Source of the DNA: Flaccisagitta enflata
Taxonomy: Eukaryota
Direction: 5' to 3'
Assembly: GCA_965153355.1 (NCBI GenBank)
Contig: OZ231126.1
Span: forward strand, 6,386,001 to 6,450,000
Length of the DNA: 64,000 nucleotides
A program made the translations under genes and the position numbers. Position 1 is the stretch's first letter. Each line of letters opens with the position of its first letter. The notes beneath the pieces are model-generated. The model worked only from the letters and a program-made list of their open reading frames with translations. It ran no database searches and was not told the DNA's origin. This document shows positions 4,246 through 37,200 of this stretch, piece by piece.

Positions 4246-7200
4246 CTGGAAATTGATTGGATTGATGAATATTTGAATGTAGAATAAAAGATGAATTTCA
4301 AGGAAAACAAGGCCAACACCTATAAGTCGCGTGCGAGACTTAGCATAACGACTTAGAATGACTGAGAATGACTTAGGATGACTTAGGATGACTCAGTATA
4401 CTCGTAAATGACTTAAAACGACTTAAGAAAATGAAATTGATGAAAAAAGAAAAAGTGTGGTGGATCAACAGACCAACAGACAGACCGACAGACAGACCGA
4501 CCGACAGACAGACCGACCAACCGACTGACAGACAGTCCGACGGACGGACGGACGAACGGACGAAGCGGGGAGTAGAGTCGCGTGCACGTGACTAAAAATT
4601 AAACAAAACTGCTCATTAAGTTGAATGAAGGGGCGCAAGGAATGACATGATAATAAGTCAACAATATCCATTCTGTTTTTAAGTGCGTCCTCGCACTTCT
4701 ATAAAAGGTCATGTCCGTCGGTTGGTCGGTCGGTTGGTCGGTCGGTTGGTCACGCAAACGGTTGAAATGCACAAAAGGGCTGATTCTGACGTATTTCTTC
4801 ATTCCTATCACCTTTCATGCCTCACCACATACATATTCATTCATTCATTGATTCATTCATATATTGATTCATTCATCAAAAACGTTTATTCACAAAATCT
4901 TAATCAAGCGAGGCGAACTTATTGGCCTTCACTTGGCCTTGTTTTTTTTTTTAATTTATTACTTTTCTGGTGACTTCTTTGATTTTGTTTTGTAGTTGGT
5001 TGATTTTCTTGGCCAAATCGAGAGTGTCTCCTTTCCCATTGTCAACTTTGGCCTGCAGACGCGTTGACAAACGCTCCACCTAAACGAAAAAAAACAAACC
5101 AATCATCAGAATTCCAGATTTTTGTGGCAACAATACGCCGTGCTGTCAGCACGGCACATTTTCAGATTTCAGATTTTTCAGATTTTTCAGATTTCAGATT
5201 TCAGATTTCAGATTTCAGATTTCAGATTTCAGATTTCAGATTTCAGATTTCAGACATTTTCAGATTTCAGATTTTTCAGATTTTTCAGATTTTCAGATTT
5301 TCAGATAAAAGTTGAGCTATCGTCGAATGGGTAAGGGCAGGTTTTCAGTTGCCGACACGCAAAAGTACACCGTGGTCCGCCCATCGGTCCGTCCGTCTGT
5401 TGGTCCAACGTCCCAAATATTTTTGAAATATGGACTTTCATGTCTTTTTTATTATTTTTTAGGCCATTGTAAGGTATGTGGGTATGAAATATTGTTGTAC
5501 TGTAGTTTTGTAGTACTGCCTGGGTGTATAATATTGTTGTACTGTAGTTTTGTAGTACTGCCTCTACCCGACCGTCCGCGACTTTCGCCCTGTCTTGGGA
5601 TTATTGAGAATTTAAGCACAGAAGGGAGATGCAAAAAATCAAAAACCCTTCAAATAAGCGACTACAGATTAATAGGGTGAAGTGGGGTAAAATGGGTCAC
5701 TTTTTCGAATGTTTTTTTGATATTGCGTAATTTATTGACAAAATGAAGAATTTTACGGATGGTTATGGACATTGTGTGTTTCCTCTATTACCACGAAAAA
5801 GGAAATTGCCTCCAAAAAGATCTGTGTAGGGGGCAGCCCTCCTTTTTGTGAACGGGTAAGTGACCCATTTTACCCCACCCAGGTGGGGTAAAGTGGGTCA
5901 CCTACTTTTTTTTCAATAATATCCACAATTTCTTTATTTCAAGTGATCATTTCTTACGTATTAGTAAAAAAAGAATAGTTTTATGCTTCAGTCGAGCCAA
6001 AAATATTATCAAACAGCAAATATTGTTGAGTTTTGAATAAAATGATATGCAAATGATGTTTTGACATCAAATCAATAGTTTTCATTTAAAAACATTTAAA
6101 AAGGATGGAAAAATAAAAAAAATGAGAAAAATAAGCTTTATATCACGTACTTTAACCCATGAGCAGGGATAGCAAGCTTTTCACTGAAAATTTGGTGATT
6201 TTAGCAGGGTGACCCATTTTACCCCACATTACTAAAAATTAATTTTTTAGCTAAATATAGATAAAAACTGAAAAACATCACTGTCCACGTTTGACCACCC
6301 ATCCATAGTATGTAGGCGATGGGCAATGATTTTCTTCCTCCATTTGGTCTCCGTGGCAACCGGAAGTTGGTTTCATGACCAGCGAAGCTGAAATCTTTTA
6401 TTTGTAAATATTATAGCATTACTCATCAGTGCATTTAAGAAATAGGGCAAATGTTTGTCTTGGAGTACCACAAGGCATCCTTCTTTTCATAACAGATGAA
6501 AAATTAGCTTCATTTCACTAGATTATTTCAGAATTTAAAAAAAAGTTTAGTGACCCATTTTACCCCGCTGACCCATTTCACCCCACTCTACCCTACCGCT
6601 CTAACGGAACTCAAGGGATCAGCATGCAGCACAAGTTGTATCATTGCCGACATAGGAAATACAGGTTGAGGGAACCATGAATTGGCAACTGTTAATAGCA
6701 GAATTTCGTTGCTGGCGAGTCTGTTTGAGCGGGGTTGGACTGTAGTGACAAAAATATCAGCGACGGATGGACAATTTTGGACATACAGAACGTCATAAAG
6801 CAATAAAGTGCGTGTTACTGAAAATTGATGATAACATGTATAGTTGATTTTCTGGGGCCACTTTGTTGGTCTTGTCTGTGGGTCCGTCAGTCCGTCTATA
6901 ACGCTTTGTCTCACCTGCTCTAACAAGAGCAATTTCTCCACGAGATGTTCCTCTTTGGTTACGAGATGATCTCGAGGACTGGCTGTCTGTCTATCTGTCT
7001 GTTTGTCTGTCTATAACGCTTTGCCTCACCTGCTCTAACAAGAGCAATTTCTCCATGAGGTGTTCCTCTTTGGTAGCGAGATGAATCTCGAGGTCTGCCT
7101 GTCCGTCTGTGACGCTTTTCCTTACCTGCTCTAACAAGAGCAATTTCTCCATGAGATGTTCCTCTTTGGTTGCGAGATGAATCTCGAGGTCCTCGATCTT

Positions 7201-34200: not shown

Positions 34201-37200
34201 CTTCTCAATTTCTCCCGCTTTTGGCACTTTACTGTATTCTTGCTCGATGACGCGTTTCTCTTCGTGAAGGCCTTCAATACGATACTCCAAACTGTACTGA
34301 CGCTCTTCCGCCTGACGCGTCATGATGATGATGATGATGATGATGATGATGATGATGATGATGATGAGAGAGAGAGAGAGAGAGAGACACACACACACAC
34401 ACACACACACACACACACACACACACACACACACACACACACACACACACACACACACACACACACACACACACACACAGAGAGGAAGAGGGAGAGAGAG
34501 ACACAGATGTTGATGATGATGAGAGAGAGAGAGAGAGAGAGAGAGAGAGAGACACACACACACACACACACACACACAGATGATGATGATGAGAGAGAGA
34601 GAGAGAGAGAGAGAGAGAGAGAGAGAGAGAGAGAGAGAGAGAGAGAGAGAGAGAGAGAATTAAAGAATTAAAGAAAGTACAGTCAGTTAACACATGTCAT
34701 GTCAAAGAGATGATAATAAACGCCTTACAATTCAAATCAAAATCATCCAGGAAATTTTCGTGGTTATAATAAGTGAGCAGTTCAAGGATGACATACCTGA
34801 GCGAGCTCATTTTGATAATTGAGCAGTTGTATTCTTAGTGATGATTGACTAATTGAATGAAGACATACCTGAGCGAGCTTTTTTTGATAATTGAGCAGTT
34901 GTATTCTTAGTGATAATTGGGCAATTAAGTAAATGCATACCTGAGCGAGGTCATTTTGATATTTGTGCAGTTGTATTCATAGTGACAATTGAACACTTGA
35001 ATGGAGACATACCTGAGCGAGCTCATTTTGATAATTGAGCAGTTGTATTCTTAGTTTGCCGACTTCCGTGTTAACATTTGCTGGGAAATTGTCTTGTTGC
35101 TCCAAATCCGCTTTTTGATTCTCCAAAGTCGTCGTTAATCTAAAATCGAAACATTGTGAAAAGTCATCTCAAACTTAAATACCATTTGATGTGTGTGTGT
35201 GGGTGTGTGCGTGTGTGTGCGTGTGTGTGTGTGTGTGTGTGTGTGTGTGTGTGCGTGTGTGTGTTTGCGTCTCTGTCTGTCATTCTGTCATTCTGTCTGT
35301 CGGCCTCTGTGTGTGTGTGTGTGTGTGTGTGTGTGTGTGTGTGTGTGTGTGTGTGTGTGTGTGTGTGTGTGTGTGTGCGTCTCTCTCTCTCTCTCTCTCT
35401 CTCTCTCTCTCTCTCTCTCTCTCTCTCTCTCTCTCTCTCTCTCTCTCTCTCTCTCTCTCTCTCTGTCTGTATGTCTGTCTGTCTGTATGTCTGTCTGTCT
35501 CTCTGTCTATCTGTCTGTCTCTCTCTCTGTCTGTTTGTTTGTCTCTCTCTCTCTCTCTCTCTCTCTCTCTCTCTCTCTCTCTCTCTCTCTCTCTCTCTCT
35601 CTCTCTCTCTCTCTCTCTCTCTCTCTCTCTCTCTCTCACCTTTTGGCCTCTTCCAGTAGTTCTGACTCATTCTGCCATGAATTTCTTAGCGCCGTTCGAA
35701 GAGAAATAAATTTGGCCTTCAGCTCGGCCGCTTTCACTCCGCTCAGGCGACCCTCTGGTGGGAAAACAACAAAGTACCAATAAAGGCGGCTCTCGCCGAC
35801 CAGAAAAAAGTCGTAAATGAGAATCTCTTTTTCAATGCATGTTCTTTTGTATGCATCTCATGATGTCTGGTTGACTGCTTGCTTGATTTCGTTATTAAAT
35901 CTGTCTCACTGTGTCTCTTTTTTGGTCTTTCTTTGTCTTCGAGTGTGTTTGTGTGTGTGTGTGTGTGTGTGTGTGTGTGTGTGTGTGTGTGTGTGTGTGT
36001 GTGTGTGTGTGTGTGTGTGTGTATGTGTGTGTGTGCATGTGTGTGTGTGTGTGTGTTTGTGTGTGTGTTGTCTGTGTGTGTGTGTGTGTGTGTGTGTGTG
36101 TGTGTGTGTGTGTGTGTGTGTGTGTGTGTTCTCTCTCTCTCTCTCTCTCTCTCTCTCTCTCTCTCTCTCTCTCTCTCTCTCTCTCTCTCTCTCTCTCTTT
36201 CTGTGTCTCTATGTGTGTGTGAATGTATGTGTGAATATGTGTGTGTGTGTGTGTGTGTGTGTGTGTGTGTGTGTGTGTGTGTGTGTGTGAAATTGTGAAT
36301 GCGTGTGTGTGTGTGGGGGTGTGTGTGTCTTTCTCTCTCTAGCTTTCTATTTCTCTTTCCCTTTATATTCTCCTTCTCTCTTTTTCTCTTTCTCTCTCTC
36401 AAGCAGAGTATAATGCAAAAGCTAACGTCATAAAAGTTAGGGCCAAATTGTGTAACATCTTGACTCTTCTCTCTCGTTACATGGGGCTAAAGAATCGGAT
36501 CAATGAAAAATATCAATTTTTGAAAAAATATAAAAAATATTAAAAGATTCAAAAATTCATAGCGCCAAAACTAATGATCGTAGAGACTTCTGGTTGGCGC
36601 CATATGAAAGAGAAAAATAAGCTCTTTCTTAGCTATGAATATAAAAAAATGTATCATCCCAGCCCCAAAATAACCAAACTTTCTAAAATTGCCTCAAACC
36701 AAAAATGGAAAACGTTATTTCTTCCCTACGTTTCAAAAAGTCGAATTACGTAATTCGACTTTTTTCCAATCATCAGTTTGCCGGTCTGCCGGTCCGTCTG
36801 TCGGTTGATCCGTCTGTCGGTGGGTCCATCCGTTAATTTTTTATCGTTTACATGCCGTTTGTATTTCATGGTCCCTGCCCAACTGTTTGATGAATTCATT
36901 TCATCACAGCTTCTGCCTCACCGCACGCGGCTAGGGTAGCCGGGTTTTTGGCCTTGTTTTTGGATGCATCCGCATGTCAAACAAACAGTTAAATTGCTCA
37001 TGTACCATGAAATAGTTCTTTGAGGCATTGGAAGGCTGGACTGGTGGAAAAGTCTTCTTCATTTTGCGTCTCTGACGTGAGCCTTGGTGGAATCGGCGCC
37101 AGCGGCTCCTCAACTCCATACTCCTCCTTGATGGAAGAAAGAATTACAGAAAATTAATGGGGGGACATGCACGAACACACACTAACATACACAAACAGAG

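Follow-up and report, generated by a model that had tools for sequence, protein, structure and literature searches.

Genes and features in the window

The window, by which we mean the whole 64-kb stretch of DNA that was analysed, carries a homolog of CCDC146 on the reverse strand and exons of a PEPCK gene on the forward strand (Table 1). CCDC146 is a cilia-related gene, and the host is a marine invertebrate. The order of the CCDC146 exons was taken from tblastn searches with homologs, and exon 11 is 80-83% identical to proteins named CCDC146. Every junction of the model has GT and AG borders in compatible frame. Donor sites were placed for 16 exons (exons 2-17), and exon 1 was not located; the 17 donor junctions counted in the original prediction are therefore reduced to 16, while the six reported there as being copied into the intron all stand. 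When the first donor at each junction is used, the joined exons encode a stop-free protein of 944 amino acids, which aligns without gaps to homologs of 941 (P0017, 55.6% identity) and 932 amino acids (P0020, 58.0%). An ORF of 149 amino acids at 16959-17408 was also tried as a CCDC146 query and was set aside: it is not CCDC146, and its relative P0007 matches only positions 16826-17620. The PEPCK assignment comes from matches to solved PEPCK structures, with E values of 1e-15 to 1e-16.

Table 1. Positions of exons and duplicated junctions in the window. CCDC146 exons carry the numbers used in the original prediction.
Feature	Position	Strand	Basis or remark
CCDC146 homolog, coding exons 2-18	3838..37138	-	
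CCDC146 exon 2	37138-37006	-	
CCDC146 exon 3	35754-35640	-	
CCDC146 exon 4	35139-35013	-	
CCDC146 exon 5	34311-34130	-	
CCDC146 exon 6	32848-32690	-	
CCDC146 exon 7	31630-31448	-	
CCDC146 exon 8	28374-28252	-	
CCDC146 exon 9	27443-27338	-	
CCDC146 exon 10	27013-26831	-	
CCDC146 exon 11	15140-14961	-	
CCDC146 exon 12	14380-14303	-	
CCDC146 exon 13	14015-13829	-	
CCDC146 exon 14	12634-12474	-	
CCDC146 exon 15	8363-8172	-	
CCDC146 exon 16	7323-7126	-	
CCDC146 exon 17	5079-4963	-	
CCDC146 exon 18	4245-3838	-	
Exon-4 donor array	34769..35055	-	TRF (72 x 4.0) and register alignment
Exon-6 donor array	32630..32744	-	TRF (58 x 2.0) and register alignment
Exon-7 donor array	29001..31531	-	TRF (29020-31531: GTT runs, 66- and 170-bp units), alignment, fuzzy search
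Exon-13 donor and two short echoes	13617..13843	-	Targeted alignment
Exon-14 donor array	12177..12564	-	TRF (12263-12564: 101 x 2.9) and register alignment
Exon-16 donor array	6881..7191	-	TRF (6890-7191: periods 115 and 96) and register alignment
Preceding PEPCK exon	~59904-60040	+	
455-bp tandem duplication at PEPCK acceptor	62838..63750	+	TRF, 2.0 copies, 98% matches
PEPCK exon	63718..63868	+	~residues 111-157 of rat cytosolic PEPCK

Exon ends and donor sites are repeated in the adjacent introns

For each donor, the segment from -90 to +30 was aligned to its own intron, and the copies were then set in register. For the counts, targeted scanning was used in place of a whole-window self-BLAST, which misses the copies at exons 6 and 13. 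Six of the 16 placed donors (exons 4, 6, 7, 13, 14 and 16) are echoed, meaning that the end of the exon and its donor are copied head-to-tail directly downstream in the intron, and the echo sites number 31 in all. The original prediction of six such junctions is thus borne out, by TRF at the predicted places and by register alignment or, for exon 13, by alignment only. Each echo unit includes between 14 and 84 exon bases. Identity of the copies to the donor segment ranges from 62 to 96% (4-38% divergence), and the copies show indels and unequal microsatellite lengths.

The exon-4 array is built from a 72-bp unit (43 nt of exon and 29 nt of intron) present as one authentic copy and three echoes at +72, +144 and +216. 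These echoes are 81-90% identical, all copies retain the donor CAG/GTATG (the slash marks the exon-intron border), and use of any of the three echo donors would lead to a stop at codon 12. At exon 6, the 58-bp unit consists of 55 nt of exon plus GTA and has a single echo at +58 (88%), whose donor, CAG/GTGATG, would shift the frame if used.

The largest array follows exon 7, where fuzzy matching of a 34-nt core recovers 22 copies, one authentic and 21 echoes, over ~2.3 kb. Each echo has ~40 nt of exon followed by GTGA, and (CAA)n runs separate the copies; at a higher level of organization, a block of ~925 bp occurs twice with 92.7% identity. The motif AAG/GTGA is kept in all 21 echoes, any of which would, if used, bring in a stop at codon 2. 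Tracts of (CAA)n are also present at the end of exon 7 and at the start of its intron.

Exon 13 has the shortest echoes, each with ~14 nt of exon plus GTTAGTCAA, lying inside a 77-bp intronic tandem unit. They are located at +104 (21 nt, 100%) and +181 (44 nt, 73%) and read CTG/GTTAGT and ATG/GTTAGT. This array does not appear in the TRF output, even at a score of 30, and was found by targeted alignment only. Exon 14 has a unit of 101 bp (~84 nt of exon and 17 nt of intron) with two clear echoes, one at +101 (92% identity) and the other at +202 (83%); a third, weak echo lies at +303 (77%). Neither clear echo has kept the donor, which has changed from GT to AT in the first and has decayed in the second. 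The exon-16 array has units of 96 and 115 bp, which combine 66 nt of exon with ~30 nt of intron and also have an (ACAG)n-like tail, with echoes at +96 (92%) and +212 (91%) and donors CAG/GTGAGG and CAG/GTGAGA. Use of the +96 donor would add 32 residues in frame without a stop, which none of the other 31 echo sites would do.

The mirror case proposed for a PEPCK acceptor was also recovered. The duplicated segment takes in 422 nt of intron, the pyrimidine tract and CAG, together with the first 33 exon bases, and it places a copy of the acceptor 455 bp upstream of the acceptor itself. Short homologies are found at the breakpoints of this duplication (3 nt, GAT), of the exon-16 array (GAC) and of the exon-7 array (CAA runs).

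Authentic donors and the state of the echo donors

Judging from coding sense, the authentic donor in each array is predicted to be the one nearest the 5' end, because only the model built from first donors yields the 944-residue protein that aligns without gaps to its homologs. Use of an echo donor would produce a stop or a frameshift at 30 of the 31 sites. Nevertheless, most echoes keep their GT, as had been proposed: it is intact at 29 of 31 sites, and both losses are the exon-14 echoes noted above. Most echo sites match the donor consensus at 7-8 of 9 positions, and the authentic sites likewise score 7-8. The donor motif (-3 to +6) carries 11 mismatches in 186 positions, compared with 114 in 862 for the rest of the echo unit (Fisher P = 0.004, a value that is too optimistic given that the copies share ancestry). 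The better preservation of the motif hints at constraint on the pseudo-sites.

Frequency of echoes relative to the repeat background

Within the window, which contains no N bases, 28% of the DNA lies in tandem arrays, as does 29% of the CCDC146 span. The strong local duplication process that was originally proposed is consequently evident here, as is an excess at the donors of this gene, while genome-wide targeting to, or retention at, exon-intron boundaries is not established. A comparison of echo frequency with random positions, of the kind that accompanied the proposal, was made within the window under one fixed criterion. It gives echoes at 6/16 donors, 0/16 acceptors and 65/600 random intron positions.

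If the 13 arrays in the gene span are seeded uniformly, 0.54 are expected to span a donor and six are observed; at least five occur with P = 1e-4, and six or more arose in none of 200,000 trials. With a cruder null based on position, P is 0.005 when donors are taken alone and 0.13 when acceptors are included. Donor-spanning arrays are over-represented in CCDC146 relative to the uniform model, with the caveat that the evidence comes from a single gene picked post hoc. The in-situ arrays with units of 58-115 bp in this gene all lie at donors, and microsatellites begin 3-7 nt past the donors of exons 3, 7, 8 and 10. With one gene as evidence, the excess may equally be due to a bias in mutation, to selection, to ascertainment or to sequence being lost more slowly close to exons. 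Three neutral factors could each contribute about two-fold: sequence beside exons may be lost more slowly, a copy under constraint may diverge more slowly, and the window may have drawn attention because it is striking.

Comparison of junctions with relatives

The exon-16 echo is absent from two informative relatives, the ORF fragments P0089 (97% identical in exon 16) and P0090 (92%), in which the reading continues past the donor into unrelated sequence. A third fragment, P0091, reaches a stop 7 codons beyond the same donor and is uninformative. These three were the only hits of the protein search for same-species ORFs with the exon-16 echo, and none has it. A metagenome scan with exon 16 recovered no relative, and neither the protein nor the metagenome searches found a same-species contig. 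When exon 11 was used for the metagenome scan, five loci (L001-L005) were found. L002 and L003 are transcript-like contigs that lack introns; the other three (L001, L004 and L005) are short-intron relatives in which a TRF scan reveals no junction echo. L001 does have an array of 27 nt x 2.3 located 11 nt past a donor, repeating GGTCAGT, which is too short to be an echo. The homologs P0017 and P0020 show no insertion at any echoed junction. From P0089 and P0090, the echo donors at exon 16 do not appear to be conserved, regulated alternative 5' splice sites.

Origin of the echoes

We lean towards reading the echoes as intronic minisatellites that are young and specific to this lineage. They would belong to a known type, whose first unit lies across the exon-intron boundary. 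The human F7 gene provides the model for this type, and the CCDC146 arrays share its organization: the copies run head-to-tail at the 5' end of the intron (from TRF and register alignments, and from targeted alignment at exon 13), the first monomer lies across the boundary so that the donor motif is reiterated, and the donor predicted to be authentic on the basis of coding sense is the most upstream.

Such arrays could have arisen by tandem duplication of a short segment, mostly the end of an exon with the next 3-30 nt of intron, within a region where almost one third of the DNA is tandem repeat, the likely routes being slippage, unequal exchange or microhomology-mediated repair. Some arrays would then have expanded, with that of exon 7 reaching 22 copies by way of its (CAA)n tracts. 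The duplications would be tolerated since the exon and the original junction remain whole at the 5' end of the array, and the downstream copies would be 5' pseudo-sites that are most likely silent as in human F7, an expectation carried over from the mammalian model, or that give rise to rare transcripts bound for NMD. A restriction to donors would be understandable if splice-site choice is polar. A copy located 3' of the real donor would be harmless, while one located 5' of the real acceptor or within the exon would probably be used or break the frame, and would be purged by selection.

The identities of 62-96%, the indels and the differing microsatellite lengths indicate real, aged duplication events, and assembler stutter is ruled out for the CCDC146 arrays by this divergence among copies, as was originally argued. 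That the assembly joined uncollapsed overlaps or haplotypes into false tandem duplications is very improbable as an explanation of the echoes. For the PEPCK duplication the signs are mixed: exactly 2.0 copies at 98% identity form the pattern that haplotype-overlap joins can yield, and the breakpoints share the 3-nt homology seen in real duplications. The window has no N, and joins of this kind do not account for CCDC146 arrays with up to 22 diverged copies and higher-order structure. A transposon-borne satellite was likewise rejected, since, across the 64-kb window, the units of exons 4, 6, 14 and 16 match nothing but their own arrays. Satellites of 20-21 nt, unlike the echo units, do recur within the same 64 kb.

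Against the minisatellite reading stands the density of the arrays: a purely neutral, uniform process would give far fewer donor-spanning arrays among 13 than the six observed. A purely neutral version also sits uneasily with the preservation of the donor motif, even if the P value is too optimistic. These two observations favour a process biased towards junctions, in which mutation would produce tandem duplications preferentially at 5' splice sites, through fork stalling linked to transcription or splicing or through microsatellites seeded by GTGAGA-type donors, or in which extra U1-binding donors are selected. Under the selective version, duplications adding U1-binding motifs would become fixed more often than neutral intronic ones, and a small advantage would be enough in a large marine population. 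The higher rate of echoes at donors than at random intron positions, the confinement of the 58-115-bp-unit arrays to donors, the GT retained at nearly all echoes, the microsatellites just past four donors and a seventh junction echo in the neighbouring PEPCK gene all point the same way, as do the five human examples in PMC1557585, which are likewise donor-side (5/5). Yet the case comes from a single gene selected as striking, the excess fades (P = 0.13) under the position-based null for both junction types, and common descent of the copies inflates the motif test. Moreover, the exon-14 echoes without GT show no sign of removal, and the lack of the exon-16 echo in relatives means that nothing is conserved. 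A further point against a bias is that no mechanism directing duplications to donors at the molecular level is known to us. We therefore consider a junction-biased process possible but doubtful, and would propose only tentatively that tandem duplication is biased many-fold towards 5' splice sites genome-wide, whether by transcription- or splicing-linked mutation or by selection on banks of pseudo-donors.

It is unlikely, in our judgement, that the echo donors work as alternative 5' splice sites that tune CCDC146 output by unproductive splicing and NMD or, at exon 16, that add a 32-residue in-frame coiled-coil segment. Their match to the consensus equals that of the real donors, the exon-16 +96 site is open and in frame, and human IFI6 and CBS use the first two pseudo-sites beside the authentic donor, according to PMC1557585. 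Against this stand the stops or frameshifts at 30 of 31 sites, the homologs without insertions at echoed junctions, the relatives P0089 and P0090 without the exon-16 echo, and F7, LMNB2 and PDGF, for which PMC1557585 describes use of the first donor only.

Implications and comparison with known systems

The organization of the CCDC146 arrays is one for which human F7 has served as a model in splicing research. Should the donor excess extend genome-wide, it would indicate a junction-linked duplication bias or selection on pseudo-donor banks, and would supply many natural test cases for 5' splice-site choice and intron lengthening. If a duplication bias is real, arrays of competent decoy donors would be expected in a considerable fraction of genes, and the genome would amount to a natural, large-scale F7 experiment on how the spliceosome chooses the first of identical donors. 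If the excess fails, the locus neatly illustrates how minisatellites ordinarily arise where a genome is very rich in repeats, and it warns gene predictors that the wrong donor copy can be picked.

The route to intron gain by tandem duplication, invoked in the original prediction, does not apply to these arrays, which lengthen existing introns and create none. In the Rogers model (Drosophila cases, PMC2891723), as in CCDC146, a splice signal comes to be present twice because the tandemly duplicated segment includes a splice motif. However, duplication within an exon in that model gives a new intron of the size of the duplication, whereas in CCDC146 an existing donor is spanned and the intron is only lengthened. 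Intron gain of the Rogers type was rejected on the grounds that the introns measure 698-4110 nt and end in conventional AG acceptors with a pyrimidine tract, to which the units bear no relation, such that the duplications lie inside pre-existing introns.

The closer parallels are human. It was originally remarked that no description at this density was known; the density is indeed unusual, and the open-access literature searched contained nothing denser than six arrays with 29 intact decoy donors in one gene, but the kind is already described. Minisatellites whose first monomer spans the boundary are reported for F7, IFI6, CBS, LMNB2 and PDGF in PMC1557585, from which the details that follow are also taken. 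The VNTR of F7 intron 7 (37-bp unit) agrees with the CCDC146 arrays in its head-to-tail arrangement at the start of the intron, in a first monomer that spans the boundary and in an authentic donor that is most upstream, and among its identical donors only the most upstream is used. The F7 unit includes only 4 exon bases and is repeated identically, with a polymorphic copy number, in contrast to the 14-84 exon bases and 4-38% divergence in CCDC146; the presence of six arrays in one gene is also a CCDC146 feature that F7 does not share. The arrays of IFI6 (6-16) intron 2, CBS intron 13, LMNB2 and PDGF intron 4 span donors and have 10-25 pseudo-sites in units of up to 100 bp, and are thus comparable to the exon-7 array, with its 21 echoes, and to the 96-101-bp units of CCDC146. 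Constitutive use of the first two pseudo-sites is described for IFI6 and CBS. Each of these four human genes is described with one array, unlike CCDC146, where six donors are echoed.

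Structure of the CCDC146 gene

The minus-strand gene examined here includes a 60-residue exon with 80-83% identity to proteins named CCDC146 from molluscs, a brachiopod and nemerteans. Its layout was derived by tblastn of four full-length homologs, with borders placed at GT donors and frame-compatible AG acceptors. Exons 2-18, when joined, encode 944 residues with 0 stops and align gap-free with homologs from Lingula (P0017; 941 residues, 55.6% identity) and Lineus (P0020; 932 residues, 58.0% identity). The protein is approximately equidistant (56-58%) from homologs of lophotrochozoans, echinoderms and hemichordates. 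Sequencing runs containing this DNA comprise DNA runs from a single organism and marine metagenomes. Exon 1 was not located, and 16 donors and 16 acceptors were evaluated.

Exons 10 and 11 are contiguous, at ~86% identity, in several related sequences (proteins P0008-P0010 and P0014, and positions 3268-3555 of L001, a related metagenome contig). Because the two exon sequences abut there, the 11.7-kb intron 10 is absent from these relatives. Intron positions in L001 differ from those of the gene in the window.

Anatomy of the donor echoes

Each donor segment was aligned against its own intron and the copies were then set out in register. Together with a repeat scan, this recovered all six echoed junctions of the original prediction, although the proper denominator is the 16 placeable donors rather than 17.

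Features of the window and of contig L001 (offsets marked + are distances in nt from the authentic donor)
Feature	Position	Description	Basis
60-residue CCDC146 exon	14961-15140 (-)		protein search
Exon-4 donor	+72, +144, +216	3 echoes	register alignment
Exon-6 donor	+58	1 echo	register alignment
Exon-7 donor		21 echoes across ~2.3 kb	
Exon-13 donor	+104, +181	2 short echoes	register alignment
Exon-14 donor	+101, +202, +303	echoes; that at +303 weak	register alignment
Exon-16 donor	+96, +212	2 echoes	register alignment
(GA)n microsatellite	35380-35637	starts 3-7 nt past exon-3 donor	
(GA)n microsatellite	28200-28245	starts 3-7 nt past exon-8 donor	
(GA)n microsatellite	26688-26826	starts 3-7 nt past exon-10 donor	
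(CAA)n microsatellite	31193-31442	starts 3-7 nt past exon-7 donor	
Two adjoining long-period arrays	21228-23273	163 bp x 5.0 and 359 bp x 3.4; deep in intron 10	
Open frame	16826-17620 (-)	in intron 10	
Open frame	8368-9837 (+)	489 aa, in intron 14	
20-nt-unit arrays	605-839, 23550-23940, 46465-46584	matches among the three and to a stretch near 56000	
21-nt arrays	24200-24449, 51142-51345, 58794-59023	outside match (near 51000) for the 58794-59023 unit only	
28-nt satellite	44122-45471	48 copies, 92% matches; intergenic, between CCDC146 and PEPCK	
L001 tandem repeat	4366-4426 of L001	27 nt x 2.3, 97% matches; starts 11 nt past CCDC146 donor	

Echo units are made up mainly of 14-84 nt from the end of the exon, joined to 3-30 nt of intron. 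As had been predicted for most copies, 29 of 31 echo sites retain GT, and the two that do not are the clear exon-14 echoes. Echo donors agree with 7-8 of the 9 consensus positions, as authentic donors do; consensus scoring of the exon-13 echoes is 3 nt out of register, and those sites are read from the register alignments. Within the exon-7 array, a ~925-bp block of eight units occurs twice at 92.7% identity. Judging from a first-donor gene model that carries no insertion relative to homologs, the authentic donor appears to be the 5'-most copy in all six arrays.

Excess over chance

A position was scored as echoed if a downstream or upstream copy covered it, and random intron positions were drawn with the echo arrays excluded. 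Under this fixed criterion, 6/16 donors, 0/16 acceptors and 65/600 random positions are echoed, giving binomial P = 0.005 for donors alone and P = 0.13 for 6/32 junctions; such a null is over-lenient towards sites that already existed, since growing arrays create new positions inside themselves by construction. The long-period arrays deep in intron 10 are the source of most echoed random positions.

As a fairer model, we asked how often the seed units of the 13 arrays within the gene span would include a donor if placed uniformly in the 33.3-kb gene. The expected number of donor-spanning arrays is 0.54 (P(at least 5) = 1e-4, and no simulation out of 200,000 gave 6 or more). When any type of junction counts, the expectation is 0.99, with P(at least 6) = 1e-4. 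Donor-spanning arrays are thus about ten-fold over-represented in CCDC146, with three caveats: the gene was chosen for its striking look, exon-adjacent sequence is probably lost more slowly, and one copy per array is under constraint. Mismatches are fewer in the donor motif of the echoes (11/186) than in the remainder of the unit (114/862; Fisher P = 0.004, an optimistic value because copies share ancestry).

Age and origin of the copies

Echo copies share 62-96% identity with the authentic segment, carry indels and vary in microsatellite length; the window contains 0 N bases. The echoes reflect genuine duplications that have aged rather than assembler stutter, as their divergence had been taken to indicate. 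Units of the exon 4, 6, 14 and 16 echoes have no other occurrence within the 64-kb window, unlike the 20-21-nt satellites, which recur at several places. Breakpoints share short homologies, GAC in the exon-16 array and GAT in that of PEPCK, the neighbouring plus-strand gene; the exon-7 junction has CAA runs on either side, in the end of the exon and at the start of the following intron.

Exon 16 has three matches at 91-97% identity among ORF fragments from ENA contigs, and all of them read through its donor. Beyond it, P0089 and P0090 continue for 32 and 16 codons of unrelated sequence, whereas the window runs directly into the second copy, so the exon-16 echo is absent in both of these informative relatives; P0091, which ends 7 codons on, gives no information. 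Every unit of the L001 tandem repeat carries GGTCAGT, the donor core of that junction, and the repeat could be what is left of a donor echo, or the resemblance could be chance.

The predicted mirror case at a PEPCK acceptor was also found. Two consecutive PEPCK exons occupy the plus strand, and a 455-bp duplication (98% identity) repeats, ahead of the true acceptor, a segment holding its pyrimidine tract, CAG and 33 nt of the exon start.

Explanations for the echoes

We lean towards the view that the echoes arose in situ as ordinary tandem duplications, that they are young, and that the genome around them is very prone to slippage. Next to donors they would be tolerated because the exon and first donor remain intact after such a duplication and because, among equivalent donors, the first would be chosen. 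As a rule, the first AG past the branch point is the acceptor used. A copy lying upstream of an acceptor, or within an exon, would either attract splicing or disrupt the reading frame, which could explain six donors against no acceptors; the sole acceptor case, PEPCK, has a long unit. A real junction-biased process, mutational or selective, is possible though less probable, and it stays a serious rival because of the seed-model excess and the retention of the donor motif.

That echo donors serve as functional alternative donors seems unlikely. Their consensus fit equals that of authentic donors, and splicing at them is predicted to give a premature stop or frameshift at 30 of 31 sites; the exon-16 +96 site alone would add 32 residues in-frame and stop-free. 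An assembly artefact is highly improbable given the divergence of the CCDC146 copies.

Other repeats and elements

The strong local duplication originally proposed is evident: this eukaryotic DNA is extremely tandem-repeat-rich, with 283 TRF rows at score >= 30. In the window, arrays at score >= 50 occupy 28% of the DNA and microsatellites alone 10%; the corresponding shares of the gene span are 29% and 15%. The donors ahead of the tabulated microsatellites read GTGAGAGAGA, GTGAAGGAGAGA and GTATGAGAGA, and the (GA)n runs look as if seeded by the donor motif itself. (CT)n / (CAT)n runs stop 11-16 nt short of the exon-10 and exon-5 acceptors.

The intron 10 open frame is unrelated to CCDC146, has no Pfam family and matches the C-terminal part of proteins of up to 970 aa (P0001-P0007; 55-73% identity); it could represent either a mobile-element fragment or a nested gene. 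The intron 14 frame runs antisense to CCDC146 and has a reverse-transcriptase domain (Pfam RVT_1, E 3.8e-33); it is a fragment of a LINE-like retroelement. Open frames adjoin several of the 20-/21-nt array sites and have a peptide such as FWAAAPKGSMTYAFTH in common, a pattern suggestive of a dispersed satellite carried by transposons. The large 28-nt satellite has no further copy in the window.

Comparison with known systems

The Rogers model, as outlined in PMC2891723, derives a new intron from a duplicated exonic AG|GT. We rejected it, and with it the suggested bearing of the echoes on intron gain, since the CCDC146 duplications merely lengthen existing introns that end in ordinary acceptors. 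The originally claimed novelty holds in part: none of the open-access literature searched reports several such arrays in a single gene or surveys them genome-wide. PMC10078293 covers repeats affecting splicing rather than boundary-spanning arrays.

The kind itself is known. PMC1557585 describes human F7 intron 7 (37-bp unit, 5-9 copies), IFI6 (25 pseudo-sites), CBS intron 13 (15-20 repeats), LMNB2 (100-bp unit, 10-15 repeats) and PDGF intron 4 (81-bp unit, 16-18 repeats). According to the same text, the sole donor used in F7, LMNB2 and PDGF is the most upstream, the first two pseudo-sites are also used in IFI6 and CBS, and a 5'-to-3' scanning rule was shown for F7. With these arrays on record, each CCDC146 array is a further case of a kind already described.
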